From a virus, in the IMG/VR virus record IMGVR_UViG_3300009431_000983: a stretch of DNA of 28,566 bases; one strand, given 5' to 3'. A program made the translations under genes and the position numbers. Within the stretch, counting starts at the first letter, position 1. Each line of letters begins with the position of its first letter. The notes beneath the pieces are model-generated. The model was not told the DNA's origin, did not search any database, and saw only the letters and a program-made list of their open reading frames with translations. This document shows, in pieces, positions 1-16,698 of the stretch.

Positions 1-1183
1 GAGATCCACACATCGAACAACAACCACCAGAACTAGTGCCCGCAAAAAGCGGAGGTTGTACCAAGCGCTCCGGATAAGTGGCGTAATGCTTTCCACGGTA
101 CTGGGCCACAGGAACATGAAAAACATCCCTGCATCTACGAGATCTCTCCTCATCTGAAGAAGCCTCACCGTCCCCAGTGCGCTCTACGATGGCCTCTGTG
201 TCGAAATAGTAATCGTCGGTCTTAGTGAACACAAAGACATGTTCGTGGGACTTTACTAAACGGCCTCCACCCCTCTTCCTGGAAACCCTACGCCCCTGCC
301 AGCACTTAAAGCACCCGCCCCCACCGCAGTGCTGACAAGTCTCATCCCTGACTTCATCCTCCCAGCCCACCATACTCTCCGGCATGGGGTTGGGCTTGGC
401 CCAGATTACGTCACCTCTCAACACCCAACCATGACTCTCCATCGTGGTCTGTAAGGTCCACGCTCTCATCTCTTGTGTAACTTCTGGAATAACTTCCGCG
501 TAGTTGTCACCGCTCGCAGACTGCACCAGACGACTGATCCACTCGTTTATCCTGGTGGACGGAATCACAGACATGCCCTGAGCGCCGAACGCCAACCTCC
601 AGGGTACACCAATGAAACTCCCCGTCTTAATGTGTGGACAGTCTCTGCGATTTCCTCGATAAAGAGGTAATGCTCCCTCTTCTTTCACAGCCCTGGATAG
701 GCTGTTCTCTCCCCCTCCCGGGTTTTTACAGCTTCCCTTTGCGGTCCAGTAACCATCACCAATAACCAGCCATAGAGTTCCATCCGGCCTCAAAACCCTG
801 CGCACCTCTCTGAGAACCTCCAAAAGATGCTCGACGTACATCTCTGGAGTGGGCTCCTGCCCTAACGCTCCGTTCCAGGCCCCACATTGAGTGCACGCCT
901 GGGTCTTTTTGCGGTCGTACTTGAAAGAATAAACGGTGCCTGTCTTGCCTCGAATGCTCTCAGCGGAACCCCTGAGAGCATTTCGATTTTCATTCATCAG
1001 CCCTCCATCCGTCTCAACCCAGACGTGCTCACACGACCGGTCTCCGCCCCAGATCGAGTGGATTACGTCGTAGGCCCGCATACCGAAATAGGGAGGACTG
1101 CAGATACAACAATGAAAGAAGTCATCCGGCAACTCTCTCAGTTTCTCCCTGCTGTCCCCCACAAGCACGTGCGCTTCAGACAC
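1..1183 (-). CDS. DNA methyltransferase (beta-class N6-adenine/N4-cytosine), 3'-truncated by window edge
   Basis: Manual minus-strand translation is open from about 1183 to position 1 with no stop, which is why it is missing from the ORF track. N-terminus reads VSEAHVLVGDSREKLRELPDDFFHCCICSPPYFGMRAYD (motif IV SPPY). It continues with a Cys-rich insert (CEHVWV..CTQCGAWNGALGQEPTPEMYVEHLLEVLREVRRVLRPDGTLWLVIGDGYW) that is clearly paralogous to the 2150..3355 protein. Likely GTG start at 1183, giving a TGA/GTG overlap with the upstream gene. The C-terminal part including motif I lies beyond the window. Confidence 0.75.
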   Translation of the reverse strand, partial: MSEAHVLVGDSREKLRELPDDFFHCCICSPPYFGMRAYDVIHSIWGGDRSCEHVWVETDGGLMNENRNALRGSAESIRGKTGTVYSFKYDRKKTQACTQCGAWNGALGQEPTPEMYVEHLLEVLREVRRVLRPDGTLWLVIGDGYWTAKGSCKNPGGGENSLSRAVKEEGALPLYRGNRRDCPHIKTGSFIGVPWRLAFGAQGMSVIPSTRINEWISRLVQSASGDNYAEVIPEVTQEMRAWTLQTTMESHGWVLRGDVIWAKPNPMPESMVGWEDEVRDETCQHCGGGGCFKCWQGRRVSRKRGGGRLVKSHEHVFVFTKTDDYYFDTEAIVERTGDGEASSDEERSRRCRDVFHVPVAQYRGKHYATYPERLVQPPLFAGTSSGGCCSMCGS

Positions 1184-1571
1184 CTTGTTGAACCTCCGTT
1201 CCTTTGACGGTCCCCAAGGAAACCCGCTCCTCTTCAGAAAAACAGGTATCTAGATATCGAAAACCCCTGAACGACTTAAGGCCCTCACCCCAGGGTCGCT
1301 CCAACTTCTGAAAATCCGGAGATCTCCACACGACGTGAACCCCCTTCCAGTCTTTATCGTGTACCTCGCAGTGCATATCCCGATCCGTCACTTCGTGCAC
1401 CTTAGCCTTGGCGACGACTTCGCCATTCAACTGAAACCAGATGCTCTCTCCTGGAGAAAGTCGTTTGGGTCTGGCCGATAAAGTGTGCCACTCGATGAAC
1501 CCCTCTCCCAAATCATAGTCGTTCCAAAATGACTCTGCGTCCCCCTTCCTGACACACACTACCACGTCCAT
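1176..1571 (-). CDS. hypothetical protein (possibly a small PUA-like beta-barrel; function unknown)
   Basis: ORF 1176..1652 trimmed to the internal ATG at 1571 (MDVVVCVRKGD...). That start lies 1 nt after the TGA of the upstream methyltransferase (TGAgATG coupling). The longer N-terminal extension would overlap the methyltransferase by about 80 nt. No recognisable catalytic motif. Confidence 0.5.
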   Translation of the reverse strand: MDVVVCVRKGDAESFWNDYDLGEGFIEWHTLSARPKRLSPGESIWFQLNGEVVAKAKVHEVTDRDMHCEVHDKDWKGVHVVWRSPDFQKLERPWGEGLKSFRGFRYLDTCFSEEERVSLGTVKGTEVQQGV

Positions 1572-1572
1572 C

Positions 1573-2178
1573 TCACACCTCCCCTTTGCAGAAAATCGTA
1601 GTCGTCCGAAAACGATGATTGGTGGACCTGGCGATCCCGATGAAACCTCCAAGCTGCCATCCGTCTTTTTTCCTGAACGGAGGATAGACGCAGTCTAACC
1701 ACACCAAGTAACCACCAGCTCTCGTAACCGCGGCGCACTCAATAACCACCGGCTTCCTCTTAACCATCGGAAAGTTGTACTTCTTGGCGTCCTCTTTACT
1801 GTACGGAGGGTCCGCAATAACCAAATCGAACTGGCCTGGCTCGAAAAACTCGCTCAACTGATGAGCATCGCCCTGAACGTCCACCTCTCCCTGGATGTCA
1901 AACCGAGTATAGTTCCCTTCAGGTAGGGATCCAGAAAAAAGATGTAAAATGTTCTCCGCATCGGGAAACATGGACATGACTCTCTTGAGGTAATTCGGCG
2001 GATACGCCCCGTAGAGTCTGCTCTTGTTCCTGAAATCGTTGCCTAAACACCAGTACCCAGTGAGCCACTCTCTACCGTTGTTCTCCGTAACCACCAGATG
2101 GGAAGCGGGCCACTTCGCGAAAGCAGCGTTGTAAAGCCGGGCTCGGTGTTCAAGCTTCCAGTGAGAATTCATCGGCAC
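1573..2178 (-). CDS. N6-adenine DNA methyltransferase (gamma-like order: FxGxG then DPPY)
   Basis: 201 aa. HLFSGSLPEG (motif I-like) is followed about 40 aa later by LVIADPPYSKED (motif IV DPPY), a classic amino-methyltransferase signature. Overlaps the downstream methyltransferase by 29 nt. Confidence 0.75.
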   Translation of the reverse strand: MPMNSHWKLEHRARLYNAAFAKWPASHLVVTENNGREWLTGYWCLGNDFRNKSRLYGAYPPNYLKRVMSMFPDAENILHLFSGSLPEGNYTRFDIQGEVDVQGDAHQLSEFFEPGQFDLVIADPPYSKEDAKKYNFPMVKRKPVVIECAAVTRAGGYLVWLDCVYPPFRKKDGWQLGGFIGIARSTNHRFRTTTIFCKGEV

Positions 2179-3355
2179 TTTCCACCTTCACTTCGGTTAA
2201 GAGACCTAACTCCTCGTTCACTCGTTCCTCGGCCTGACTTGCATAATCGTCCCCGATCTCCACCAGAACCGCTTCCCTGCCGATCTCCGCGGCAACTTTA
2301 CCAACCGTCCCAGACCCACCGAACATGTCCAGAACTCTACAGGGCGCTGCCTCTCCCTCAACTTTACAATTACAGTCCTGAACCCAGCCCACGGGATGGT
2401 CCTCTTCCAGGACTCTAAAAAACGGTCTACCACACCCTCCACAACACCCGCCGTCGCTGGTACCTAACTTCAGGCACCTGCGCACCAAATTCGGAGGAAA
2501 CACCGCGTAGTGTTGCCCAGGATAGTTCTGGAGTCCGATTCTCCACACAGATCGAATGTTTTTACCCCTCTTTGCGAATTGACTGGCGTCGGACCGGTCC
2601 TCACTTCCAGCGGCCCAACCTCTTCCCTGTGAACCTGCACGTACTTTGGCCCCTCCCGAGAGCGGATATTCTATTCTCTTCCTGGAAGCCTCACTGTAGG
2701 GCTCTCTGTTGCCTTCCATGTCATAGAAATACGAATCCTCTCCCTTCGTCAGAAGATAGAGGTACTCGTGTATCCGATTGGGTCTGCCGGACCCATTCTT
2801 TCTCTTCAGTATCTTACCCTTCCAACACTCCCCGCACGCTCCGTCCTCGCAAGACTCGCACTTACCAACCACCTTGTAATGAGCATCGTGGACGCTCTCT
2901 GGGAAGACGTTGGGCTTTTCCCAGACACAGTCACATTTGTGAGTCCAGCCCTCCTTCATCATCTCCTGAACCACCCGAGAAGGCACACACAGCAAGTTGC
3001 CTTTACGGTAATCCCCATGAGTCTTCTTGCAAAAGGAATCTCCGATGTTTAACCAGAAAATACCGTCGGACCTCAAAACACGAAAAGTCTCTCTGAAAAT
3101 CTCCACCAGGTGTTCGATGTAGAGGTCTGAAGTAGGCTCCCACCCCAACTGCCCTATCCAGGCACCGCAATCAGCACAAGTACCGTCATCCACCCAGGTA
3201 TGCTCACACCCCGCCTCTCCCCCATACGCCAGATCCGGAGCTTCGTACTTTCGAAGCTGGTAGTACGGAGGAGACGTTATCACACAATGAAAGTACTCAT
3301 CGGGAATACGCCCTAAAACGGACAGAGCGTCCCCCCTAACGATGCTAATGGACAT
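2150..3355 (-). CDS. DNA methyltransferase (beta-class N6A/N4C) with Cys-rich zinc-finger-like inserts
   Basis: 401 aa. N-terminus GDALSVLGRIPDEYFHCVITSPPYYQLRKY (motif IV SPPY). C-terminus VLDMFGGSGTVGKVAAEIGREAVLVEIGDDY (motif I FGGSGT), i.e. beta-class circular permutation. Inserts CEHTWVDDGTCADCGAW and CESCEDGACGECWKG are paralogous to the 1..1183 protein. Confidence 0.85.
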   Translation of the reverse strand: MSISIVRGDALSVLGRIPDEYFHCVITSPPYYQLRKYEAPDLAYGGEAGCEHTWVDDGTCADCGAWIGQLGWEPTSDLYIEHLVEIFRETFRVLRSDGIFWLNIGDSFCKKTHGDYRKGNLLCVPSRVVQEMMKEGWTHKCDCVWEKPNVFPESVHDAHYKVVGKCESCEDGACGECWKGKILKRKNGSGRPNRIHEYLYLLTKGEDSYFYDMEGNREPYSEASRKRIEYPLSGGAKVRAGSQGRGWAAGSEDRSDASQFAKRGKNIRSVWRIGLQNYPGQHYAVFPPNLVRRCLKLGTSDGGCCGGCGRPFFRVLEEDHPVGWVQDCNCKVEGEAAPCRVLDMFGGSGTVGKVAAEIGREAVLVEIGDDYASQAEERVNEELGLLTEVKVESADEFSLEA

Positions 3356-3370
3356 AACTACTTTTGCCGG

Positions 3371-3892
3371 TCAGAACTTACTGACGACTTGCCCACCACT
3401 CTCCTTCGATTCCCCATCAGTCCCTGTTGGTTTCCCAGCTTCCTCACGCGGCCCCACGAACGCTGAAGGTGAAACCTCTTCCACTTCTTGAACATCCACA
3501 ATCTCCCACTGTTCGTTATCATGCCCCTTCCTCTGGTCCATCAGCCACCAGGCCAACTCACCGTTCCCTGTGGATACTGCTTCTCTGATCTTCCTACGAA
3601 TCCTGTTTTCTTGAGCAACACCCTCCTGTTGCTCTTTCATCTCCTCACCGATTGCGCCAGGCATCGACACATCGTCATAGCTCCAGACGTTACTGGACAT
3701 TCGCCGTCTGTAGATAGCTAACGCAGCCGCCCTACACCGCAACTCAGAAGAAGCGTCGTAAACCTTGAGCCCGTCCGGTTCCTTGACCACCAAAACCTTA
3801 ACCGGGAATTTCGACGGTTTGGTTCTACCGTGACAGTCCTTGTATTTCTTACCGCTACCACACGGACAAGGCTTGTTTCTTCCCGTTTTCAT
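3371..3892 (-). CDS. SEC-C metal-binding motif protein, function unknown
   Basis: 173 aa. N-terminal KPCPCGSGKKYKDCHG matches the SecA-C-terminal (SEC-C) zinc-binding motif. The rest is acidic and uncharacterised. Confidence 0.6.
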   Translation of the reverse strand: MKTGRNKPCPCGSGKKYKDCHGRTKPSKFPVKVLVVKEPDGLKVYDASSELRCRAAALAIYRRRMSSNVWSYDDVSMPGAIGEEMKEQQEGVAQENRIRRKIREAVSTGNGELAWWLMDQRKGHDNEQWEIVDVQEVEEVSPSAFVGPREEAGKPTGTDGESKESGGQVVSKF

Positions 3893-3956: not shown

Positions 3957-4199
3957 CTAGTCGTAGTCCCCGTCGTCTAGAAGATCCACCTCTCTGGCAA
4001 TACTCGATTCATTCAAGTAGCGCTCCAAGTGCGCTTTGAGATTGGGGTGCAAATCCGTCATCCCAGACAATCTGACTAAAAACTGCAAGCCTTCATCAGT
4101 ACAACCCACGAACCCAATCGTTCTTCCCGCATTCTTTCCCGTCTTGAACTTGTATCCGGAAGCCTCCTTGAATGTCATCTCGACGCTTGCTTCCATCAA
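3957..4199 (-). CDS. hypothetical small protein (80 aa)
   Basis: Start ATG overlaps the stop of the upstream NDT-like gene in an ATGA arrangement (translational coupling). Ends 13 nt before a perfect 13-bp hairpin. Confidence 0.55.
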   Translation of the reverse strand: MMEASVEMTFKEASGYKFKTGKNAGRTIGFVGCTDEGLQFLVRLSGMTDLHPNLKAHLERYLNESSIAREVDLLDDGDYD

Positions 4200-4759
4200 T
4201 CCTCCTCCAAAGCGTCCTCAGAAAAAAGACTAGGACAAGATCTGTATTCGCTAAGAAGAATACCCAACGCTTCCAGGGGATCTTCTACCAGAGGTCCTCC
4301 GTCGTATTCCTGATGCAGAGGATTCAAAATGCGAGTAGTCCCATAAGTATAGGCCAGCCACATGTCGGGAAAATAGCACGGCCCACTTACCCACACCTGC
4401 TTACCTAAGGCCCTGGCGGTAGCCACCTCCGTAAGAGTCCCGTACACGTCCTGGCTGGAAATCCAGGCGAAAGTCACATCTGCCATCCTCACCGCTTCCC
4501 GAGATAGACGCCCCAGAATTACCCTCGCCCTGAAACGGTCCTGCCTGGCGATCCCGTCACAAATCTCCAAATATGGTCCGGTGTAGTCTAATCCGTCACC
4601 TAAACCGTCAGTGATTATTCGCCACGCTCTAGGTACTGTGTCCAACCTGTGATGTGAAGTCGCATATCCCTCAGGGAACTCACTAATCACCGGATCTCGC
4701 CAGCGCCCCGTAGGACCACTCACCTTACCCGCCAGGTAGAACGCTATCCTCTCGCTCAC
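4196..4759 (-). CDS. nucleoside 2-deoxyribosyltransferase / DNPH1(Rcl)-like N-glycosidase superfamily protein
   Basis: 187 aa. N-terminal RIAFYLAGKV (IYLAG-type motif) and C-terminal DVTFAWISSQDVYGTLTEVATARALGKQVWV (D..G T.E.G.A.A.GKPV-like motif) match the NDT/DNPH1 flavodoxin-like fold family as I remember it. Start overlaps the end of the PurA-family gene (4756..4759). Confidence 0.6.
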   Translation of the reverse strand: MSERIAFYLAGKVSGPTGRWRDPVISEFPEGYATSHHRLDTVPRAWRIITDGLGDGLDYTGPYLEICDGIARQDRFRARVILGRLSREAVRMADVTFAWISSQDVYGTLTEVATARALGKQVWVSGPCYFPDMWLAYTYGTTRILNPLHQEYDGGPLVEDPLEALGILLSEYRSCPSLFSEDALEED

Positions 4760-5889
4760 TTTTCTTTGAACCCCAAAAAGTCCCAGACATGGTTCTGCTG
4801 AGGCCCAGTACCCACCAGAATCACCGGAAGTCTCGTTTCCTCCCGCACCTGTCCAATGAACTCCCGAACCTTGGGAGGTAGCTCAGAAAACTCGTCTCCA
4901 CATGTGCCGAAACAGCTATAGTCAAGATAGTTAGCGAAGTTCAGTACTAGCTTGGTCACACCGTTCAGCCGACACGCTCTCTTGATCTGCTCCATGGAGA
5001 AGGTTGCCACCCGCCGCACCCTCTTAGTGACAGTCGTCAACTCCATCAAGTCGTAGTCCTCCGGGTATCCTGCTTCCTCCTTAATCTGCTCCCAGGTGAT
5101 CTCCTCTTGGTCCGGATACCAGTCCCCGGAATAGCCAACTTGCCTGCCGCCCTCAACCACGTTACCCACCCGTATCGGATAGGGCCTGAATACACCATAC
5201 ACGTCACCCAGGTCTCTGGGTGAAATGCCCGTATCCGTCAATTCCCTGGAGACGGTACACTCACGAGAAGTGCAAAACGGATAGGACTGACCGTGTAGCA
5301 TCCCCAAAGAAAAACCCTGGCTTCCTTCAGCCAGAAACATCCCCTGCTCCACAGCTTCCTGGATTACGTTGAACCACTCCCCCTCAGGCACAACCATAGA
5401 CGACAATTCCGATACATCCCTTGCCAGAACTACTCCCTCTCCCCGCATCATCCTCTCTACCTGAACGGCCCCCGACCCCTGCATGGTGGACGCCAAATGC
5501 TTAGTACTTCCCTCATTACCCACCTTTCCACTTTCCACCTCGGCATGCTTTTCGGTTACAACCATCGCCCTCGGATGAATGTGCACCGAAGAACTGTCAA
5601 GAGAACACTCATTTATCTCCTGTAGAAGTCTCTCAACGAAAAATCCCGCCCCAGGACCCACGTAAACTTCGACATCTTGTCCCTGATGCCTGAGAAAAGC
5701 ACTTACCGGAATCAACTTGGACACGAATTTACGGCCGTCCGCCAGTACTATAGTGTGTCCGGCATTTGGCAGATTATTTGTCCCCGCCCCCGTTACGTTG
5801 AACCTTTCCGCCAGATATCCAGCGATCAGACCCTTCCCACAACTACCGAACTGCAAATCCACCACAACGTTGAAACAACCACGAAGCAT
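4756..5889 (-). CDS. adenylosuccinate synthetase family enzyme (PurA/PurZ-like), divergent P-loop
   Basis: 377 aa. NVVVDLQFGSCGKGLIAGYL aligns with the PurA P-loop VVVGtQWGDEGKGKivD. NNLPNAGHTIV aligns with GGhNAGHTvv (conserved His). QGFSLGMLHGQSYPFCTS aligns with the QGtlLDidhGTYPfVTSS region of PurA. The SD GGAAGGGAGAA sits 8 nt upstream of the ATG. Confidence 0.75.
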   Translation of the reverse strand: MLRGCFNVVVDLQFGSCGKGLIAGYLAERFNVTGAGTNNLPNAGHTIVLADGRKFVSKLIPVSAFLRHQGQDVEVYVGPGAGFFVERLLQEINECSLDSSSVHIHPRAMVVTEKHAEVESGKVGNEGSTKHLASTMQGSGAVQVERMMRGEGVVLARDVSELSSMVVPEGEWFNVIQEAVEQGMFLAEGSQGFSLGMLHGQSYPFCTSRECTVSRELTDTGISPRDLGDVYGVFRPYPIRVGNVVEGGRQVGYSGDWYPDQEEITWEQIKEEAGYPEDYDLMELTTVTKRVRRVATFSMEQIKRACRLNGVTKLVLNFANYLDYSCFGTCGDEFSELPPKVREFIGQVREETRLPVILVGTGPQQNHVWDFLGFKEK

Positions 5890-5968: not shown

Positions 5969-8764
5969 TCAACCGCTGCACCCGTCACCCGCTCCGCAGT
6001 TCAAACACTTGTGACAGGTCCCATTACGCACCATCATGAATCCGCACCCTGGGCAAAGTGGCGCGTCCTCCGTCATCCTGAAAGCGTGGTCCTTGGTTTC
6101 AGCCTGTCTGATGGACGTTTCCTGTTCTTCTCTCTCTTGATTGTGCACCTCTTCCTCGTGGCCGTCGCCACTGACCTCAGGTATGAAGCTCTCCGAAGAG
6201 TCCAAGTCCTCAAGAAACTTGATACCAAGCCAACGGAACACATAGTCTACCACCGACTTGGCCAACCGTATATCCGGATTCTTAGTGTGGCCCGCCGGCT
6301 CGAAACGCATGTAACTCAGCTTGTCCACCAGGGCCTCAAGAGGAACACCATACTGTAGAGCGATAGAAGAAACAATGGCAATCGTGTCCATCAGACCAGA
6401 AATCGCACTCCCCTGCTTCGCCATCTTCAGGAAGATTTCCCCCGGCCTCCCATCATCGTACTTGCCGACCGTAACGAACCCTTCGAAACCTCCAATGTCG
6501 AAACGATGCGTGAGGGACTGCCTCTCCCCCGGAAGGTGCTCCCGCTCTGGACGAACCGCCGCCTTTTCTTCCTTACTCTTTGAAGTGCCGGAATTCAGAG
6601 GCTGCGCCTTCTTGCAGTTGTCCCGGTAGATAGAAATGGACTTGAGTCCCATCTTCCAAGCCTGAACGTACAAATCAAGGATCTCAGGTCCGGTCGTTTC
6701 CTCCGGAACGTTTACCGTCTTGGAAATTGCCCCTGAGAGAAATGGCTGAACCCCAGCCATCATTCTGAGGTGCCCGCTGTGATGGATCGACCGAGTACCG
6801 CTTAAAGGAACAAGAGCGCAGTCGAACACGGACAAGTCATCTTCTCTAAGACCTGGCGCTCCTTCGATGGTTTCTTTGGACTCCAGGTGGTCAAGAATGC
6901 CTGAAACCTCCCCGTCCCTGTAGCCCAGCACCACCAGTCCGTCCCGAACAGACTGGTTGACAATGCTCATTTCCCCTCCGCCTGAAAGCTTCTTCGTCTT
7001 TACTAGGGCGAGATCCGGCTCAATCCCTGTGGTATCGCAGTCCATCATGAAAGCGATAGTTCCTGTAGGCGCTAAGCACGTTACCTGGGCATTCCTGAAT
7101 CCGAAATGTGCACCATCCTTCAAAACATCTGCCCAAACATCCGAAGCCTTGTTACCTAGCTCCGTCTCAACTCCCCTGAAACCGTGACTTGCTGCCTGCG
7201 CGGCATGCTCGTGCATCACCGACATGAAAGACTGTTCGTTGTTGCGATATCCAGGGAAGACCCCCTTTCTCGAAGCCAACGAAGAAGAGGTCCTGTACGC
7301 TTCGCCCGTCATGACCGAAGTCAGAGCCGCAGCATAGTTGCGGCCTAAGTCACTGTCATAGGCGACACCCTTAGACATCAAAAACGCACCCAGATTGGCG
7401 TAGCCCAGACCAAGCGGCCTAAAATCGTTACTGTTCCTGGAGATCTTCGTTGTCGGATAGCTCGCCTTGCTCACAAGAATGTCCATGGCCGTGATTATCA
7501 CCCTGACCGTGTGACAGAACAGGGAAACGTCAAAAGACCCATCCTCACAAGTGAAACTCTTCAGGTTGAGAGATGCCAGATTACAGGCGCTATCGTCCAG
7601 GAACATGTACTCACTGCACGGATTGGAGGCGTTGACTCTGCCTGAATCCCTGCAGGTGTGCCAGTGATTGACGGTCGTATCGAACTGTAAGCCGGGATCG
7701 CCACAAGCGTAAGTTGACCTGGCGATCGCCTCAAGGATCTTCTTGGCGGGAATTGTGTCTACTGGCCTGCCCGTCACCACCTCGGTAGTTTGCCAGTCCT
7801 CACCCTTCTCAACTGCTGTCATGAAGGCATCCGGAACTCTCACTGAAAAGTTCGAATTCTGGAAAAAGACTGAACTATACGCCTCTCCGTTCAAAGAGTT
7901 GTCATATCCCGCCTCTACCAAAACTTGGGCCTTACGCTCCTCTCTGGTCTTGGCCTCAATGAAGTCCAGGATGTCCGGATGATCCACATTCAAAATCTGC
8001 ATTTTCGCGGCTCTGCGCGTCTTCCCTCCAGACTTGATGACACTAGCGAAAGCATCGTACCCCCGCATGAAAGCCAAAGGTCCCGAAGCAATTCCTCCAG
8101 CGCTCAAGTGCTCCTTGGAAGACCGGATAACGCTCAAGTTGGTGCCTGTACCAGAACCATACTTGAAAAGCATGCCCTCTGTCTTGGATAGCCCCAATAT
8201 GGAGTCCATGCGGTCTTCAACCGAGTTGATGAAACAAGCAGAGCACTGAGGACGATTCTCAATCCCTACGTTGAACCATACCGGACTGTTAAAGCAACCC
8301 ACCTGAAACAACAAGATGCTGGTCAATTCGTCCCTGAAGGTTTCAGCCTGCTCCTCTGTCTCAAAATAGTCCTGCTCCTCTCCCCACCTAGTGATCGTAG
8401 TCACCACCCTCCCAATCAACTGCTTAACACTGTATTCCCTACCAGGACTGCCAACTGCCCCCCGAAAGTACTTAGAGGCGACAACGTTGGTGGCGAGTTG
8501 AGACCAGGTCTTTGGTACTTCAACCCCCTCTTGTTCAAAAACGACTGTCCCGTCATCCCCGTTGATTACGGCCTTTCTGGTCTCCCACTCCACACGCTCG
8601 TATGGGTCCTTTCCTTTTACCGACCACTGCCTTTCGAGAGTAAGTACGCCCTTACCGTTTCCAGAAGACGGCCTAACGTCTCCTGCGGACTGCGTGGACG
8701 TTACTCCCTCTGTAATGCTTGCCCGTCCTCGCTCTACAGTAGCTACTGCTTGTCCCTCTGCCAT
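5969..8764 (-). CDS. nrdJ: ribonucleotide reductase, class II-like (adenosylcobalamin-type NrdJ) large protein with C-terminal zinc ribbon
   Basis: About 930 aa. ASKYFRG, NSPVWFNVG, CSACFI, GSGTGTNLS, NPCSEYMFLDDSACNLASLNL (RNR active-site Cys/Asn/Cys/Glu region) and C-terminal CPGCGF..CHKCLNCG. Start trimmed to the ATG at 8764 (MAEGQ), preceded by GGGAGGAGG. The longer frame starts with TTG at 8791. Confidence 0.85.
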   Translation of the reverse strand: MAEGQAVATVERGRASITEGVTSTQSAGDVRPSSGNGKGVLTLERQWSVKGKDPYERVEWETRKAVINGDDGTVVFEQEGVEVPKTWSQLATNVVASKYFRGAVGSPGREYSVKQLIGRVVTTITRWGEEQDYFETEEQAETFRDELTSILLFQVGCFNSPVWFNVGIENRPQCSACFINSVEDRMDSILGLSKTEGMLFKYGSGTGTNLSVIRSSKEHLSAGGIASGPLAFMRGYDAFASVIKSGGKTRRAAKMQILNVDHPDILDFIEAKTREERKAQVLVEAGYDNSLNGEAYSSVFFQNSNFSVRVPDAFMTAVEKGEDWQTTEVVTGRPVDTIPAKKILEAIARSTYACGDPGLQFDTTVNHWHTCRDSGRVNASNPCSEYMFLDDSACNLASLNLKSFTCEDGSFDVSLFCHTVRVIITAMDILVSKASYPTTKISRNSNDFRPLGLGYANLGAFLMSKGVAYDSDLGRNYAAALTSVMTGEAYRTSSSLASRKGVFPGYRNNEQSFMSVMHEHAAQAASHGFRGVETELGNKASDVWADVLKDGAHFGFRNAQVTCLAPTGTIAFMMDCDTTGIEPDLALVKTKKLSGGGEMSIVNQSVRDGLVVLGYRDGEVSGILDHLESKETIEGAPGLREDDLSVFDCALVPLSGTRSIHHSGHLRMMAGVQPFLSGAISKTVNVPEETTGPEILDLYVQAWKMGLKSISIYRDNCKKAQPLNSGTSKSKEEKAAVRPEREHLPGERQSLTHRFDIGGFEGFVTVGKYDDGRPGEIFLKMAKQGSAISGLMDTIAIVSSIALQYGVPLEALVDKLSYMRFEPAGHTKNPDIRLAKSVVDYVFRWLGIKFLEDLDSSESFIPEVSGDGHEEEVHNQEREEQETSIRQAETKDHAFRMTEDAPLCPGCGFMMVRNGTCHKCLNCGAGDGCSG

Positions 8765-8830
8765 GCTAACACTCCTCCTCCCTGTACCCAATGTTTACCT
8801 TCTCAACCTGAACTATCTGACGCTTCGCTG

Positions 8831-9454
8831 CTAGCCGAATAGAGCAGCGTCCACCACCTGCGAAGATACTGGACGATCGGACTTTCCCTGGGAAAGCCAC
8901 TCTTTGAACTGACCCCAGGTCAAAGCTGTAACGCTTCCTAGTCCTTTCCACCCAGGCTCGTAGTTACTTAAATATCCTTCTCTTGCCGCCTTCTCATTGG
9001 TGAACCCAACCATCACCTTGTGCTCATCGAACTCGCCATCCCAATTCTGGTCAACAACAAAAACGACTTCTGATTCCGGATTGTCTCCTATAAACACATC
9101 GATGTGGTCTCCATCAGCATCACTCTCTGTCAAACGGATATACCCGTAATGATGCTTCATCTTGATGGACCACTCCACGCCGTCCGAACTCTTTCCGCTG
9201 CGGGTTTGCCCCTTCCCTGTCTCAATCGTAATAGGGAGGCCCCGAACCGTAACTTTGCCTTTACGGTAATTCCCCGTCTCTTTCTGCTTTTCGGTGGGAT
9301 TTGGCTCGCACTTCTTGGCCGCCTCGTCAATCAGCTTCTTCAGGTCACCGTTCACCTGGGCAACCACTATCGACAGAAGCTGACTTGCCGACTTTAATCT
9401 TCCGTCTGCACCTATCACCACTGAAATCCCTATACCCGTTGTACCGTGCTTCAC
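8831..9454 (-). CDS. divergent family-I inorganic pyrophosphatase-like protein
   Basis: KHHYGYIRLTESDADGDHIDVFIGD resembles the PPase core NYGYI..T.S.DGDP.DVLV. Weaker matches elsewhere in the protein. Start uncertain: GTG at 9454 has no SD, while GTG GTG at about 9416 is preceded by AGGGA. Confidence 0.45.
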   Translation of the reverse strand: MKHGTTGIGISVVIGADGRLKSASQLLSIVVAQVNGDLKKLIDEAAKKCEPNPTEKQKETGNYRKGKVTVRGLPITIETGKGQTRSGKSSDGVEWSIKMKHHYGYIRLTESDADGDHIDVFIGDNPESEVVFVVDQNWDGEFDEHKVMVGFTNEKAAREGYLSNYEPGWKGLGSVTALTWGQFKEWLSQGKSDRPVSSQVVDAALFG

Positions 9455-11814: not shown

Positions 11815-12246
11815 CTACCTGTTCTCCAGGTATGCCTTCCTGACTTTAAACCAATACTTCCTAGTCTCCTTTTTGTTATACCCCCTAGGTCCGCCATTGT
11901 GAACTCTGGCAAGGACCTCCATGTTCCAGGAAGCAAGCGCCTTAGGCACATACCGCTTCCAGTAGTTATACATCACTCTCTCCGCGTAGGTGATGTTGCT
12001 GACGTCCTGGTATCTCCCCTTTGTCCTGGAATCCTTCCAATAGGCCTGACTTATCTGATACGGACCCAAGGACCTGCCGTTGTCTCCAAGCACGTTTGCG
12101 GGATTCCGAAAGGACCCGCTCTCGACAAAGCGGATGGCTTTGTAAAACTGCCTGACGTTTACCGACTTCCCCTTGAGGGGCACCTGCCCCCAGGCCGACA
12201 CGCACAAACTGGCCAGAAGAATGGTGAAAACATAGCGAATCTTCAT
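11815..12246 (-). CDS. secreted SLT/lysozyme-like (lytic transglycosylase-like) protein
   Basis: 143 aa. N-terminal Sec signal peptide MKIRYVFTILLASLCVSAWGQ. FVESGSFRNPANVLGDNGRSLGPYQISQAYW resembles the SLT-domain catalytic E-S ... NP.A.S..GA.GLMQ region. Confidence 0.5.
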   Translation of the reverse strand: MKIRYVFTILLASLCVSAWGQVPLKGKSVNVRQFYKAIRFVESGSFRNPANVLGDNGRSLGPYQISQAYWKDSRTKGRYQDVSNITYAERVMYNYWKRYVPKALASWNMEVLARVHNGGPRGYNKKETRKYWFKVRKAYLENR

Positions 12247-12256
12247 GCTTCCCTCC

Positions 12257-13753
12257 TCAGGTTACAGTCAACTCACAGACAGAACTCAGTTGAACACCAT
12301 GTTCCTCAAAAAATCCAGGCTCTTCCAAAGCTAGAGACGCCACGCCTACCGCTAATCTGCACAGGGCTTCGTGGTACTCGTCATCCAAGTGATTCCCGCA
12401 AAACTCGTGTCCCAACTCGTGTATCAAAATCCTCAGATGCCTATCAGATATCTCATCGAAAAACGCTCTCCCCAAGCAACTCACGTTGTAGTCCAGAGTC
12501 CGGTTGCCATAAAGGGCCTCGAACTTTCTGGACTTCCCCCGCAGCCTGATCATCCGTACTTCGATTTCTATGTCCGCCACCCTCCTGGCAAGCTCCTTTG
12601 AAAACTCCGCCACCCTCCGCATTCCTCTCGTCCAGCCCTCCTCTGAAATCACCAGGTCTGGATCCTCCCCACCAGAACCCGGCCTTGGCGTAGGGAAAAC
12701 CCTCCCTGAAGGCTGCATGTTCTCGCTACGCCTGACATTCTTCCACTCACCACCACTTAAAGATCCGCCTGTCACAACGTTGAATCCGTTTGCGTAGGCC
12801 CGATAGTTGGCCTCCTTGTCCGTCGGATCCTGAATAACTCGGTCCCTGCCGAACCGATGAGTCAACATTGTGTCCAGTGCCTCATCCGAACAACGCTCAT
12901 CGCTCGTAGCCTCCCTTACCCAGGAATCGCTGGCGGCTTCCCTCTCGATTTCACCGTGCATTTCGTTCAACACGGCCACCCGCAAAGTCTTCAAGTAGTG
13001 AGGAGTGACGTTGTTCCTCTCCATGTTCAGGGGTACCTTTTGCTGAACATTGACATGCCACTCATCTCCTGTGGCCACCACCGGTAGCCCCATTTCGAAA
13101 ATCTGAGACTTCTCCCCATCACGAACCCGGAATAGCTCCACCGTGGTTTTGCGTATGCTCCGCCGCAAAACCCCATCCTCTCTGGCAATCAACGTCGCCA
13201 GACTCTCCTCGAAAGAGTGTACTGCCTCTGGCCTGCTGACTACTTCCCCGTTGAAAACGGTTACTACGTCTTCCGGGGGAATCAACGCCTCAACGTATCT
13301 CTCAAACTCTCCTACTTCCTCATCCGTAAGCTCCAGAACCCCGCAGAATACGGACCCCACTTGAGTCCCGGAGTCACTGGTTTTTCTCCGACCTCCCCGC
13401 TGGAAAGACACAGTACCCTTGGTGGTCTCGATTCTCGCGGACCGGCACAAGGATAGAATGAACTTCTCGCCTACATTGAACCGACCTCGCTTACCCGGAT
13501 CCTTCAGCTTCGTAGATTCTGCGAACAAAGTGTAAGCATGGGAAATGTCCCAAAATCCGGCGGGATCATCATCCACTACTCGGTATTCGTACATACCGCT
13601 ACCCCCGCCTCTCTTTCTCTCCAGAGAAATCTCCACCCTGGAGACATTCTGATCCCAGGCGTTCTGTATGGGTTCAGCGAGAATACAGGACTTCCCGCGC
13701 CTCTCGATGAGTTTACGCAGTCCTTCCTGGTCTACTTCGAACCAACTCGGCAT
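12257..13753 (-). CDS. GHKL-type (Bergerat fold) ATPase domain fused to HExxH zinc-metallopeptidase-like C-terminal domain
   Basis: 498 aa. N-terminal AEPIQNAWDQNVSRVEISL (E..NA.D N-box) and VVDDDPAGF (D.G.G-like G1 box). C-terminal RILIHELGHEFCGNHLDDEYHEAL (HExxH plus a downstream E). Confidence 0.6.
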   Translation of the reverse strand: MPSWFEVDQEGLRKLIERRGKSCILAEPIQNAWDQNVSRVEISLERKRGGGSGMYEYRVVDDDPAGFWDISHAYTLFAESTKLKDPGKRGRFNVGEKFILSLCRSARIETTKGTVSFQRGGRRKTSDSGTQVGSVFCGVLELTDEEVGEFERYVEALIPPEDVVTVFNGEVVSRPEAVHSFEESLATLIAREDGVLRRSIRKTTVELFRVRDGEKSQIFEMGLPVVATGDEWHVNVQQKVPLNMERNNVTPHYLKTLRVAVLNEMHGEIEREAASDSWVREATSDERCSDEALDTMLTHRFGRDRVIQDPTDKEANYRAYANGFNVVTGGSLSGGEWKNVRRSENMQPSGRVFPTPRPGSGGEDPDLVISEEGWTRGMRRVAEFSKELARRVADIEIEVRMIRLRGKSRKFEALYGNRTLDYNVSCLGRAFFDEISDRHLRILIHELGHEFCGNHLDDEYHEALCRLAVGVASLALEEPGFFEEHGVQLSSVCELTVT

Positions 13754-13762
13754 GTTCGTTTC

Positions 13763-14593
13763 CTACATGTTCCAACAACCGTGAAGACACCCCTTATCAA
13801 TGTGGTCTGCGGCCCCGGACCGAATCAGGTCCCGAACCTCCTCGATCGAAAGCTCCTTACGAAACCGGTGCTGAATCTTCTGCTCCACTTCCACATGCTG
13901 GTCCAAAAGTTCCTCGTTGTGCACACCAGCGATGAGCAGGGCATCCTTGGGAGCGAAAATGCAGAAGCAGCACGACAACCGAGGCATTCCCACGTCATAC
14001 GCCCAGTGGTGATTCGTCTCGATGGAGTGAATCCGATCCCAAACCTGCTTCTCCGTCCAGTCGTGGACCGGAAGCCAGTCATCAACGTGCCTGGTGGAAG
14101 AACTCGCCCGCTTGTTGTGGGTGAAGGGCTTCCTTTTCGCACGACTCGGAGACTCCTCCGCTCGCAACCCCATGCAGTTGAGAATCCGGCAAGGACCCCC
14201 GCCGTTCTCCTTCTGCAACCGCACGTAAATCTTGCGAATCTGATCGCGCTTGTGGTCCGAAGTGCAAAACCTGGCGCAGGACGAGGGCCACATCTGCCTC
14301 TTCTCCACGTGCTCCAGGATATCTCCCAGGACCTCCCCCTTCTGATTCACCGTGCCCTTACGGCTCACGATTTCGTATCGAAACCCATAATGGGCGCAGT
14401 GCTCTTTGAACAGGTCCACCGTCCCTGGCCAGTCCATCCGGCCAAGGTCGGCGTGAACCATGATGATCCGGTCTTCGATCCCCAGTTCCTTACACAGGTG
14501 GTAGACCTTATCAGTCGTTACCTGGGAGTCCTTACCGGCAGAACTGCTGATACAGATGAAATCGTAGCTCGCTAAATCCGGTGTTTCGACCAT
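13763..14593 (-). CDS. PAPS reductase / DndC-like PP-loop ATP pyrophosphatase family protein
   Basis: 276 aa. FICISSSAGKDSQV (PP-loop SGGxDS). VHADLGRMDWPGTVDLFKEHCAHYGF (like CysH DTG..FPET). C-terminal RLSCCFCIF Cys cluster. A promoter module with SD AGGGGACAGAGA is immediately upstream. Confidence 0.7.
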   Translation of the reverse strand: MVETPDLASYDFICISSSAGKDSQVTTDKVYHLCKELGIEDRIIMVHADLGRMDWPGTVDLFKEHCAHYGFRYEIVSRKGTVNQKGEVLGDILEHVEKRQMWPSSCARFCTSDHKRDQIRKIYVRLQKENGGGPCRILNCMGLRAEESPSRAKRKPFTHNKRASSSTRHVDDWLPVHDWTEKQVWDRIHSIETNHHWAYDVGMPRLSCCFCIFAPKDALLIAGVHNEELLDQHVEVEQKIQHRFRKELSIEEVRDLIRSGAADHIDKGCLHGCWNM

Positions 14594-14625
14594 TTTCTCT
14601 GTCCCCTAAATAGAAGGTTTTCCCG

Positions 14626-14662
14626 CTTTTATATACACCGCTCGAAGCCACGAGTTCAATCG
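14626..14662 (-). promoter_or_regulatory. promoter module P2 (TTGAAC - N17 - GTGTATATAAAAGCGGGAAAACCT...AGGGGACAGAGA ATG)
   Basis: Same module as P1, upstream of PAPS-reductase-like gene 13763..14593. Confidence 0.6.
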
Positions 14663-14748
14663 TACATAGTAGTGGCGGTCCAACAAGGACCGCCACCCGG
14701 CGTGGCAGGAGCCAGCCGTTAGGGAAAACCCCCTAAGGGGTCAAGTTT

Positions 14749-16119
14749 TTATGCTGCGGTCATCCAAAGCCTTTCGTGAAACCGGTAGCTGAACCCGTTG
14801 GACTTGAGCCAACTCTTGACTCTCCGAATCAGTCCTGAGTCATACTCCTTCAGGGCCTTGCCTTCGGGGAGGCTAACGGCCAGCGGCTTGCCCTCGGCAT
14901 CCACCTTGACGGCGAAGGTCAAGACCTCCTCACTAGCATTCCCTCCCGAATTGCTCTCCAGCATGGACGTAGTCACGCTCTCGATATCGCCAGAGAGGAC
15001 CGAGTCCCAGTTACCGTCGAAACTCTTCTTGGCCTTGTCCTTGACCAGACCAGGAGCAGCGACCAGCATGTCCTCTATCGTCGGATAAACGTCCTCCTGA
15101 CGCTCAGCCAGGTAGATTCGGTTGCTGCGGGCCACTTCAGTGACCGGCTGTCCGCTCTCGGCGGCCATTTCTGCCAGGCGGGCCTCAATCTCTTCCCGGT
15201 CACCCCGGTGAAGACCCTCGACCTTCCGGTCGGCCCGTTGCTTCTTCCAGTAAATTCTCCGGACTCGGTAGACGGCCCATTCCTCTTCAGCGAGAACCTC
15301 TTCCAGGTTGCCCACGGCGTCCTCATTACCGTCATCCCGGACGCAGGTCTCGACGCTCTTTTTCGGATAAAGAGTCATGCGAGGGTTCAAAGCGGTGGAC
15401 ACCCGCTCCAGGAGCATGGCCTCAGCGGCGGCTTCCGGATGGTCCTGATAGCGGTCGAGAATCTCACCCTTGCCGTTGGAGAAAGGGCAGAAGGAGCAGC
15501 AACTCTTCTTCCAGGCGACTCCCAGAACTTCCTCGATGTACTGCTCGCACTTCTCACGACCCCACCCCCAGTCAACCAGGGGGTAACTTACGTTCCGGTA
15601 GTCCGTCGCGAAAGACTTGTCCCTCTCGACCCGCTTAAGCTCATCTGCGTTGAAGCCGATGATGTGCTTGTATTCCGTGCCAGGAAAGCTGTCGTGAATC
15701 CAGGCGTCCAGCACCACACCCTTGAACTTGATGGAGCACCGACGATTCCCAACCGTAAACTGAGGAACCGTTCCCGCCGAAGTGAGTTCATCACTCAGCG
15801 TGTACTGACCTTCCAGAAGAACCTCCGTTGGCTCATCAGTGTCGGACAGCACCACGTAGACCTCCCCCTCCTTGAGACTGGGGCCTTTGCGGGCCACCTG
15901 GACATAGCGAATGCCATGCTCCCGGAGAAGGGGCAAGATATGCTCTTCGAGCAACTTCTTGGTGTCTGGGAACTCGTTGCCGACTTGCGAGGTGAGAACG
16001 ACCAGGTCTTCAAGCTCGAAATCCCTGGAAGCCGGCTCAAGGATCCAACGCAGGAGGATGGCCGTTGAGTCAACGCCCATCCCGTAAGAAAGGATAATCG
16101 GAGTTTTGCTGTCTGTCAT
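14749..16119 (-). CDS. PAPS reductase / DndC-like PP-loop ATP pyrophosphatase family protein (long form)
   Basis: Start trimmed to the second ATG (16119). The first ATG lies inside the promoter -10 element GTGTATGTATATAAAAG. TPIILSYGMGVDSTAIL (PP-loop). KSCCSFCPF Cys motif. Long acidic C-terminal extension ending ...KSWLKSNGFSYRFHERLWMTAA. Confidence 0.7.
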   Translation of the reverse strand: MTDSKTPIILSYGMGVDSTAILLRWILEPASRDFELEDLVVLTSQVGNEFPDTKKLLEEHILPLLREHGIRYVQVARKGPSLKEGEVYVVLSDTDEPTEVLLEGQYTLSDELTSAGTVPQFTVGNRRCSIKFKGVVLDAWIHDSFPGTEYKHIIGFNADELKRVERDKSFATDYRNVSYPLVDWGWGREKCEQYIEEVLGVAWKKSCCSFCPFSNGKGEILDRYQDHPEAAAEAMLLERVSTALNPRMTLYPKKSVETCVRDDGNEDAVGNLEEVLAEEEWAVYRVRRIYWKKQRADRKVEGLHRGDREEIEARLAEMAAESGQPVTEVARSNRIYLAERQEDVYPTIEDMLVAAPGLVKDKAKKSFDGNWDSVLSGDIESVTTSMLESNSGGNASEEVLTFAVKVDAEGKPLAVSLPEGKALKEYDSGLIRRVKSWLKSNGFSYRFHERLWMTAA

Positions 16120-16148
16120 CTCTGTCCCCTGTAGGTAGGTTTTCCCTA

Positions 16149-16184
16149 CTTTTATATACACCGCTCAGGGACAGTTTTTCAATC
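16149..16184 (-). promoter_or_regulatory. promoter module P3 (TTGAAA - N17 - GTGTATATAAAAGTAGGGAAAACCTACCTACAGGGGACAGAG ATGAC)
   Basis: Near-identical to P1 across about 50 nt including the leader. Upstream of gene 14749..16119. Confidence 0.6.
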
Positions 16185-16197
16185 GTACAGGCCCCCG

Positions 16198-16689
16198 TCA
16201 GACCCTCACGATACCCACCTTCGAGTCCTCTGAACCTACCAGGAGCAATGCTCCCTGTCGCATCTCTGCACCAAGCTCCCTGGTGATCGCCGTTAAATCC
16301 TCGAAATCTACCCCGGAGACCCCCGCAGTGGTACTGTTCGAATTGAACAGACAACCGCTCTCCGGATCCCGATATTCCCCGGATATGGCCCCCCCAATGA
16401 CCCACTGGGTAGTGCCAAGATTCCTCCTGTCACGGAGAACCCTGGAAACGGCAGTCCTTATGGCTCTCTTGATTTCCGCCGTTGAACGACGACCTCCCTC
16501 GGAACTCACGGGGAACACCAGAACACCCCCCGAACCCTCCGGAGATGTGGGTTCTGACGAAGAACCCATGACCTTTTTGGCCAAGAGGTACTCGTCACCG
16601 CTCAGGACATGCGCATCCCCTAGGTCCGGATCAGGAATCACATGAAAAGACGCTGAAATCTTTGTGGCTCCCTCAGGATTTTGACTCAT
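16198..16689 (-). CDS. hypothetical protein
   Basis: 163 aa from the ATG at 16689 (the TTG alternative is at 16698). No confident family assignment. Lies downstream of a structured intergenic element. Confidence 0.5.
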   Translation of the reverse strand: MSQNPEGATKISASFHVIPDPDLGDAHVLSGDEYLLAKKVMGSSSEPTSPEGSGGVLVFPVSSEGGRRSTAEIKRAIRTAVSRVLRDRRNLGTTQWVIGGAISGEYRDPESGCLFNSNSTTAGVSGVDFEDLTAITRELGAEMRQGALLLVGSEDSKVGIVRV

Positions 16690-16698
16690 GGTCGTCAA

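Follow-up and report, generated by a model that had tools for sequence, protein, structure and literature searches.

To our knowledge, a single pathway swaps a canonical base, adenine (A), for another with three hydrogen bonds, 2-aminoadenine (Z), and its committed enzyme is PurZ. Genomes containing Z resist many restriction enzymes, and all the characterised Z phages that we know of are small sipho- or podoviruses, which carry either DatZ, MazZ and DpoZ or DutZ and DmtZ. Here we analysed a stretch of 28,566 nucleotides from the IMG/VR virus record IMGVR_UViG_3300009431_000983 (the window), in which a gene at 4756-5889 encodes a homologue of adenylosuccinate synthetase of 377 amino acids (aa). 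Judged by its sequence, this protein is a PurZ-type synthase, neither PurA nor the GTP-using PurZ0. From homology and fold, the residues of the pocket, the order of the genes and the comparison with other loci, we consider it likely (probability about 0.7) that the enzyme acts as PurZ within a Z pathway.

The residues that set PurZ apart from PurA have been described for two enzymes. In PurZ of Vibrio phage phiVC8 they are F12, S14, T262 (2-amino group of dGMP) and F295, Y298 (adenine ring of ATP), plus P233, Y244 and W252 (bioRxiv 10.1101/2025.10.22.683976). In S-2L PurZ the pocket is formed by S23, S131, T132, R146, Q190, C204, T205, R240, V241, T273-T276, R280, N305, F306 and Q308, and a PurZ-specific insertion presses V241 against C2', which is held responsible for the rejection of the 2'-OH (PMC8342488). 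Host PurB and kinases complete dZTP in the known Z phages (PMC12884076, PMC8342488). A different partner set, published in 2026, is the PurZ0 module of Arthrobacter phage Wayne and Gordonia phage Ghobes, consisting of PurZ0, DutZ and DmtZ (plus DUF5664) (PMC12884076). Of these, DmtZ hydrolyses dAMP and also moves deoxyribose-5-phosphate onto the Z base, with Asp12 of Ghobes DmtZ contacting the adenine N6, and the DUF5664 protein of Wayne hydrolyses dATP, dGTP and dUTP to monophosphates (PMC12884076). The proteins of the nucleoside 2-deoxyribosyltransferase (NDT) family that were experimentally linked to Z phages are DmtZ (PMC12884076) and NDT-M2 (bioRxiv preprint).

The gene in the window is an ATG-to-stop open reading frame (ORF) of 377 aa, exactly 4756-5889 on the minus strand (5889->4756). 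Its product contains the P-loop VVVDLQFGSCGKGLIAGY (also given as VVVDLQFGSCGKGL), PNAGHT and QSYPFCTS; all the features that the original prediction had named for this PurA-family ORF (P-loop QFGSCGKGL, NAGHT and QSYPFCTS) were thus present. The protein matched Pfam PF00709 at 1.1e-35 and PHROG 1211 ('2-aminooxy adenylosuccinate synthetase') at 2.8e-58. Among solved structures, the best match was phiVC8 PurZ (6FM1/6FKO, E 1e-53), followed by S-2L PurZ (7ODX, 3.4e-37) and Pyrococcus PurA (1.3e-35), while bacterial PurA reached only about 1e-13. The alignments to PurZ and PurA structures were full-length. The PurA-like chain 7VF6, which we take to be PurZ0, matched at 2.9e-21, far weaker than phiVC8 PurZ. 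The closest deposited phage PurZ proteins were 37-42% identical to the window protein, with none above 42%.

To score the diagnostic positions, the protein was aligned with PurZ of phiVC8, K300, ZP6, Barton and S-2L, PurZ0 of Wayne and Archimedes, the homologue of Bacillus phage BpsS-140, PurA of P. horikoshii and E. coli, and a megaphage PurA. The window protein agrees with PurZ at all published diagnostic positions scored, from both the phiVC8 and the S-2L sets (for the phiVC8 set F14, S16, P238, Y258, W266, T285, F318 and Y321 in its own numbering). The catalytic Asp13 of PurA is replaced by Ser (S16 in QFGSCGKG, equivalent to phiVC8 S14 and S-2L S23). The whole S-2L dGMP/ATP pocket is conserved, including the contacts to the dGMP base and 2-amino group (F14, T285, S134, C206, T285-T288 and R292), and the donor pocket is of the ATP type, with N317, F318, N320 and Y321 in LNFANYLD forming the motif N-F-x-N-Y. 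A check of the residues that recognise the 2'-OH had been proposed, and it found both the V241 equivalent and the following insertion. This insertion, which comes after the conserved R-V and corresponds to A242-W250 of S-2L, reads IRVGNVVEGGRQVGYSGDWY in the window protein and is longer than in phiVC8. Among 119 metagenomic relatives, S14, T262 and F295 (phiVC8 numbering) were kept in 118 and Y298 in 117. The sole oddity of the P-loop is the Cys after the Ser, which is common to 79 of these 119 relatives. The altered P-loop had been read as the sign of either a PurZ-type enzyme or a new chemistry. Only the first part stood: Ser for Asp is the defining P-loop feature of PurZ and argues for ordinary PurZ chemistry, so that a new chemistry implied by QFGSCGKG was rejected.

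A neighbour-joining tree was calculated from 131 sequences and 362 columns with 200 bootstraps; it is distance-based, not maximum-likelihood (ML), and does not cover the full published data set. The window protein and all 119 metagenomic relatives formed one clade with 100% bootstrap. The other groups were classical PurZ (97%), PurA (99%), PurA with PurZ0 (88%), and PurA with PurZ0 and the BpsS-140 protein (88%). The window clade joined classical PurZ on the far side of the PurA+PurZ0(+BpsS-140) split (88%), as a sister and not nested, and it was sister to classical PurZ when the tree was rooted on PurA. The window protein was therefore placed away from PurA and PurZ0 and not within bacterial PurA. 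Its clade has the derived ATP-type pocket of classical PurZ, yet an archaeal-like C-terminal segment is retained. Given this scope of the tree, we regard the clade as a likely sister lineage of PurZ. With PurZ best in both structures and profiles, pocket residues of the PurZ type and a position adjoining classical PurZ in the tree, the earlier suggestion of a PurZ-like synthase instead of PurA was borne out.

Of the whole phage collection, the PurA homologue of Bacillus phage vB_BpsS-140 (L006:7929-9050) had the top tblastn score, at 213 bits (3e-59). This homologue combines Ser and the ATP-type F/Y pocket, yet has V12, E15 and A262, and branches between PurZ0 and PurZ; neither DatZ nor MazZ is annotated nearby.

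The window is gene-dense and almost wholly minus-strand, with a negative GC skew over its full length. The purZ-type protein is encoded identically on two other contigs, from other JGI samples. One of these two, contig L001, overlaps the window for 14,678 bp with a single mismatch and reaches 4.8 kb past its left end. The DNA inspected for this element was the window plus L001, about 33 kb in all, which is part of a probably much larger genome. A megablast of 25 kb of the window against 50,697 phage records gave no match, so the element is not any of the known phages, and a look-up of the right-end window protein matched only short internal contigs. The phage origin is backed by three tRNA genes, the PHROG matches, and the T4 gp13, gp15 and sheath genes on contigs of relatives; the element is probably a large uncultured phage. 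The genes around purZ are listed below in their reading order on the minus strand, so that those with higher coordinates lie upstream of it.

8831-9454, minus strand: stand-alone InPase pyrophosphatase, 207 aa (PF18823 InPase, 5.2e-53).
5969-8791, minus strand: class II (B12-dependent) ribonucleotide reductase (RNR) NrdJ (PF02867 2.8e-132, PF08471 2e-22, PF12637 TSCPD 1.2e-11, phrog_84; JGI start at 8764).
4756-5889, minus strand: purZ-type gene, 377 aa (PF00709, PHROG 1211, phiVC8 PurZ match).
4196-4759, minus strand: NDT-superfamily protein, 187 aa, whose GTG start overlaps the purZ stop (GTGA).
3957-4199, minus strand: ORF of 80 aa.
3371-3892, minus strand: SEC-C-motif protein.
2150-3355, 1573-2178 and 1-1198, minus strand: three DNA methyltransferases.
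L001:15160-15642, 481 bp past the window edge: DUF5664/PF18909 protein, 160 aa (PF18909 2.2e-14).
L001:15987-16491: three tRNA genes, Leu-TAG, Cys-GCA and Asn-GTT.

The InPase, the class II RNR and the DUF5664 homologue lie on the same strand as purZ and within 10 kb. Both the class II RNR beside the synthase gene and the PPase-like protein, which had been noticed before from the letters only, were identified by their Pfam domains (PF02867 with PF08471, and PF18823).

The 187-aa protein encoded directly after purZ gave no direct match in Pfam, PHROG or NCBIfam; a word-indexed protein search returned only the protein itself, and BLASTP against DmtZ and other references detected no similarity. 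A full HMMER search yielded 457 relatives, and 40 of the 41 that were aligned contain PF05014 (nucleoside 2-deoxyribosyltransferase), with PF15891 also found in 39. An AlphaFold2 model built with a 150-sequence multiple sequence alignment had a pLDDT of 85.4 (only 35.6 for the single-sequence model), and its best Foldseek match was human DNPH1. The catalytic Tyr (Y8) and Glu (E111, in GTLTE) are conserved. The protein thus shows the NDT-superfamily fold with catalytic Tyr and Glu that is used to recognise DmtZ, in agreement with its first description as NDT/DNPH1-like. It falls outside the DmtZ group: the DmtZ HMM had no match in the window, and the position equivalent to DmtZ Asp12, six residues after the catalytic Tyr, is not Asp (Y8-L-A-G-K-V-S14). 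By analogy, we propose that the 187-aa protein is a dAMP-directed N-glycosidase/transferase and a DmtZ analogue. A close NDT relative, P0129, sits on a contig of only 893 bp.

The DUF5664 protein scored 53.6 bits with PF18909 (cut-off 27) and was 33% identical to Wayne gp50 over 110 aa. It also matched the N-terminus of the DUF5664-DUF550 protein of Acinetobacter phage Barton, and a PDB sequence search with it gave no match. The original prediction had stated that DatZ and MazZ are not recognisable, which holds within the window, but a candidate for the MazZ-like function, the DUF5664 protein, is encoded 0.5 kb past the window edge. In PHROG, the protein at 8831-9454 matched large polyvalent proteins over their InPase segment; it is an inorganic pyrophosphatase of the phage/plasmid polyvalent-protein type, with a putative role in the pathway.

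In the pathway that we propose, the RNR would raise the supply of deoxynucleotides. The DUF5664 protein would convert dGTP and dATP to dGMP and dAMP with release of PPi, both feeding PurZ and draining dATP, and InPase would remove the PPi, pulling this reaction forward. Like its counterparts of phiVC8 and S-2L, PurZ would then form N6-succino-2-amino-2'-deoxyadenylate from dGMP and Asp, with ATP or dATP as the phosphate donor, and the host adenylosuccinate lyase (PurB) and host kinases would carry this product to dZTP, which would be built into the phage DNA instead of dATP. The NDT-fold protein, whose gene is translationally coupled to purZ, would split dAMP into adenine and deoxyribose-5-phosphate, and possibly would place the sugar phosphate onto the Z base. 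We infer the substrates, the activities and the occurrence of Z in the phage DNA, and for the specific roles given to the accessory proteins the chances appear about even.

To place the locus in a wider context, 80 IMG/VR loci were scanned over +/-10 kb with local profiles, including 55 loci with classical PurZ (38-42% identity; contigs of 4-89 kb, mostly <50 kb) and 25 of the window clade. The numbers of loci with each gene are given below, classical PurZ first.

DatZ: 52/55 classical, 0/25 window clade.
MazZ, DUF550 or DUF5664: 52/55 classical, 0/25 window clade.
Family-A polymerase: 47/55 classical, 0/25 window clade.
Conserved 250-aa protein: 0/55 classical, 17/25 window clade.
Class II RNR: 0/55 classical, 4/25 window clade.
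NDT-like gene: 0/55 classical, 4/25 window clade.
NUDIX: 0/55 classical, 3/25 window clade.
DUF6378: 0/55 classical, 2/25 window clade.
GlnA-like gene: 0/55 classical, 2/25 window clade.

In 4/4 distinct close-relative loci that were fetched by exact look-up and cover the stretch upstream of purZ (L012, L013, L015 and L017), an NDT-like gene, detectable with the 187-aa family profile, lies about 3 kb upstream of purZ. The relatives with about 60% identity are on contigs of up to 293 kb, which bear T4 gp13, gp15 and sheath genes, and IMG/VR relatives with 42-60% identity are on contigs of up to 408 kb. Literature searches, within the library covered, returned no paper tying PurZ to jumbo phages or myoviruses.

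Several other genes were observed around purZ in the clade. The 250-aa protein is encoded just upstream of purZ in its 17 loci and has invariant D63, P65, G67, K74, K181 and N185; it had no match in Pfam or PDB, and a DeoC-like assignment was unsupported by these searches. Several loci of relatives have a GlnA-like gene immediately after purZ, and Mom-like (PF25680) genes flank purZ in L013 and L014.

A number of results weigh against the assignment of this enzyme to a Z pathway. The best NCBIfam model was that of PurZ (NF038379), with 226.7 bits under a curated cut-off of 300, and the archaeal-type PurA model NF003295 was close behind (202.4 bits, cut-off 368). Since the PurZ model ranked first but below its cut-off, with archaeal PurA near, we regard the 377-aa protein as a divergent member. 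Some clade-specific changes could alter specificity, namely the Cys after Ser, G130A, and the insertions at about 246-252 and 270-280. With local profiles for DatZ, MazZ, DUF550, DutZ, DmtZ and the family-A polymerase, nothing was found in the window and L001, and five such profiles likewise had no match within +/-10 kb in 25/25 clade loci; the dATP-exclusion half of the pathway is therefore putative. The 187-aa protein lacks the conserved Cys/His cluster of its own subfamily, and this subfamily was found near PurZ in 0/27 viral loci, a count obtained by a locus search with a narrower NDT alignment. From the 0/27 linkage and the missing cluster, the pairing with purZ is specific to this lineage, and the substrate is assigned by analogy only.

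Such results leave some room for a PurZ-like chemistry with another substrate or another end, which we consider unlikely. In this case, GMP (ribo) or another 6-oxopurine nucleotide would be aminated and the RNR would then make the deoxy form; or the Z nucleotides would serve partial substitution or a non-genomic role, and adenine would not be fully excluded. The position of purZ directly downstream of the class II RNR would fit this, as would the absence of DatZ, MazZ, DUF550 and PolA in the window and the 25 clade loci, the changes peculiar to the clade (C15, A130 and two additional insertions), the 250-aa protein in 17/25 clade loci, and the GlnA-like and Mom-like genes that flank purZ in relatives. 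However, all the residues described as dGMP contacts are kept, including V241 and the insertion, and the DUF5664 homologue and the NDT-fold protein fit a deoxynucleotide pathway with removal of adenine.

Far less probable is a GTP-dependent enzyme of the PurZ0 type, the evolutionary intermediate of Arthrobacter and Gordonia phages with DmtZ and DUF5664 as partners. The partner set found here, an NDT-fold protein and a stand-alone DUF5664 without DatZ, is like that of PurZ0 phages (PMC12884076), and over its C-terminal ~50 residues the window protein aligns to archaeal PurA and to PurZ0 rather than to phiVC8 PurZ. However, the donor pocket of the window protein is N317, F318, N320 and Y321, as against (T/S)-M-x-D-Q in PurZ0 and T-K/M-x-D in PurA. 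At phiVC8 positions 295 and 298 and S-2L position 308, the residues are M, Q and D in PurZ0 but F, Y and N in the window protein. In addition, PurZ0 groups with PurA, apart from the window clade (88% bootstrap), and the DmtZ and DutZ profiles found nothing in the window and L001. A PurZ0 identity was rejected.

The least probable explanation, an ordinary auxiliary PurA (IMP + Asp + GTP) that steps up the synthesis of AMP in the infected cell, agrees with the PF00709 membership and with true PurA in huge phages, but was rejected because the PurA-diagnostic positions are S, T and N in the window protein (P-loop catalytic Asp to Ser, Asp-loop Gly to Thr, GTP-reading Asp to Asn), every PurA NCBIfam model is far under its own cut-off, and PurA is separate at 99% bootstrap. 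An example of such a PurA is encoded by the 735-kb uncultured phage LR756503 (L011:8001-9176), a canonical PurA with an intact P-loop GDEGKGK, and huge phages thus carry both true PurA and PurZ-type genes.

The DNA methyltransferases had been taken as an argument that A is not fully replaced. Of the DPPY N6-adenine methyltransferases claimed for the window, one was found, the small enzyme at 1573-2178 (phrog_3816); the other two, which belong to PF01555, have SPPY. More important, three canonical Z clusters (DatZ + DUF550 + PolA) themselves encode D12-class, Dam-type DPPY N6-adenine methyltransferases a few kb from purZ, at the positions below.

L054:8880-9845: D12 N6-adenine methyltransferase.
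L066:12536-13660: D12 N6-adenine methyltransferase.
L081:11545-12270: D12 N6-adenine methyltransferase.

Since canonical Z clusters carry such enzymes too, their presence does not speak against replacement by Z, and the argument fell. The N6 of 2-aminoadenine could be a target of the methyltransferases. The two PF01555 paralogues carry Cys-rich insertions, the methyltransferases stand in a row across window 1-3355 and L001:13496-15040, and between methyltransferase genes there is a 158-aa ORF of unknown family.

Further genes of the element were recorded. A 947-aa protein at 19502-22345 (minus strand) contains major-vault-protein shoulder and vault-repeat domains (PF11978 1.6e-23, PF17795 1e-6); it had no PHROG match and is unusual for a prokaryotic virus. 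The gene block at 12257-17899 (minus strand) encodes a GHKL-like ATPase (weak), a 166-aa unknown protein, a DUF932 protein (16862-17899, 4e-53) and two PAPS-reductase/PP-loop proteins (13763-14593 and 14749-16161, phrog_424), and possibly forms a second module for DNA modification or anti-defence. A possible lysis gene lies amid the metabolic block at 11815-12246 (minus strand); it encodes a homologue of destabilase-type (i-type) lysozyme (PF05497 6.7e-7) with a signal-like segment at the N-terminus. Three small predicted proteins at 18831-19325, 18412-18831 and 22991-23326 (minus strand) have a common C-terminal motif (RW/VW-x-T/N-x-SY/TY-R/K-x-F-R/Y-G-x-x-C-x-x-H-x-E-S) and appear to be paralogues of one family of unknown function. 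Gene calls are uncertain where the ORFs 17967-18749 and 18412-18831 overlap. After the tRNA genes, L001:16947-19465 encodes a 514-aa unknown protein and an ARPP-1/ARPP-2 domain protein (8.4e-24).

The locus points to a large environmental PurZ lineage with intact catalytic residues and different partners, much of it on very large contigs of marine jumbo phages. We tentatively suggest, at somewhat less than even odds, that next to PurZ0 and classical PurZ it forms a third, uncharacterised lineage of PurZ, found mainly in T4-like jumbo phages of aquatic metagenomes (contigs to ~400 kb). Such phages would produce Z-DNA with no DatZ, MazZ or DpoZ and rely instead on other enzymes of the nucleotide pool (NDT-fold proteins, DUF5664, DUF6378 or NUDIX hydrolases and the conserved 250-aa protein), presumably with a polymerase other than family A. 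We claim no new variant of the system, since only about 33 kb of the probably much larger genome is visible. If true, the suggestion would bring adenine replacement to jumbo phages and reveal a new set of enzymes for adenine exclusion. If members of the clade make Z-DNA, Z genomes would span a wider range of hosts and genome sizes, new candidate enzymes for clearing dATP and dAMP would be available to XNA work and synthetic biology, and metagenomic surveys must recognise a clade that falls under the curated PurZ cut-off. If they do not, the clade would be a natural test of which residues determine PurZ specificity.

Compared with known systems, the window protein shares its fold with PurZ of phiVC8 and S-2L (6FM1, 7ODX), also of the Acinetobacter SH-Ab 15497 type, and has in common with phiVC8 and S-2L PurZ the P-loop QFGS[T/C]GKGLIAGYLAE, the dGMP pocket, NFxNY and the insertion after RVG/RVA. 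It differs from phiVC8 and S-2L PurZ by an identity of 37-42%, a separate clade (100%), Cys for Thr after the Ser, an extra insertion of ~10 residues before ELTTVTK, and the archaeal-PurA-like C-terminal ~50 residues that it keeps; unlike in classical PurZ loci, its gene has no DatZ, MazZ/DUF550 or DpoZ beside it. With archaeal-type PurA (Pyrococcus horikoshii, 2D7U/5K7X), it shares the short form and a full-length alignment including the C-terminal segment (1.3e-35), whereas archaeal PurA has the P-loop Asp, the Asp-loop Gly and the GTP-reading T-M-L-D. The solved members of the NDT superfamily (DNPH1/Rcl, MilB/BcmB and nucleoside 2-deoxyribosyltransferases) are 12-20% identical to the 187-aa protein, which, unlike them, has strands 1 and 2 separated by a long insertion. 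As in the PurZ0 module, an NDT-superfamily protein by the synthase and a stand-alone DUF5664 stand in place of DatZ and MazZ, but the synthase here is of the ATP type, DutZ is absent, and the NDT protein is of another subfamily (YLAGK...WR type). The partner set therefore resembles the PurZ0 solution, here joined to an ATP-type PurZ and an NDT protein of another subfamily.

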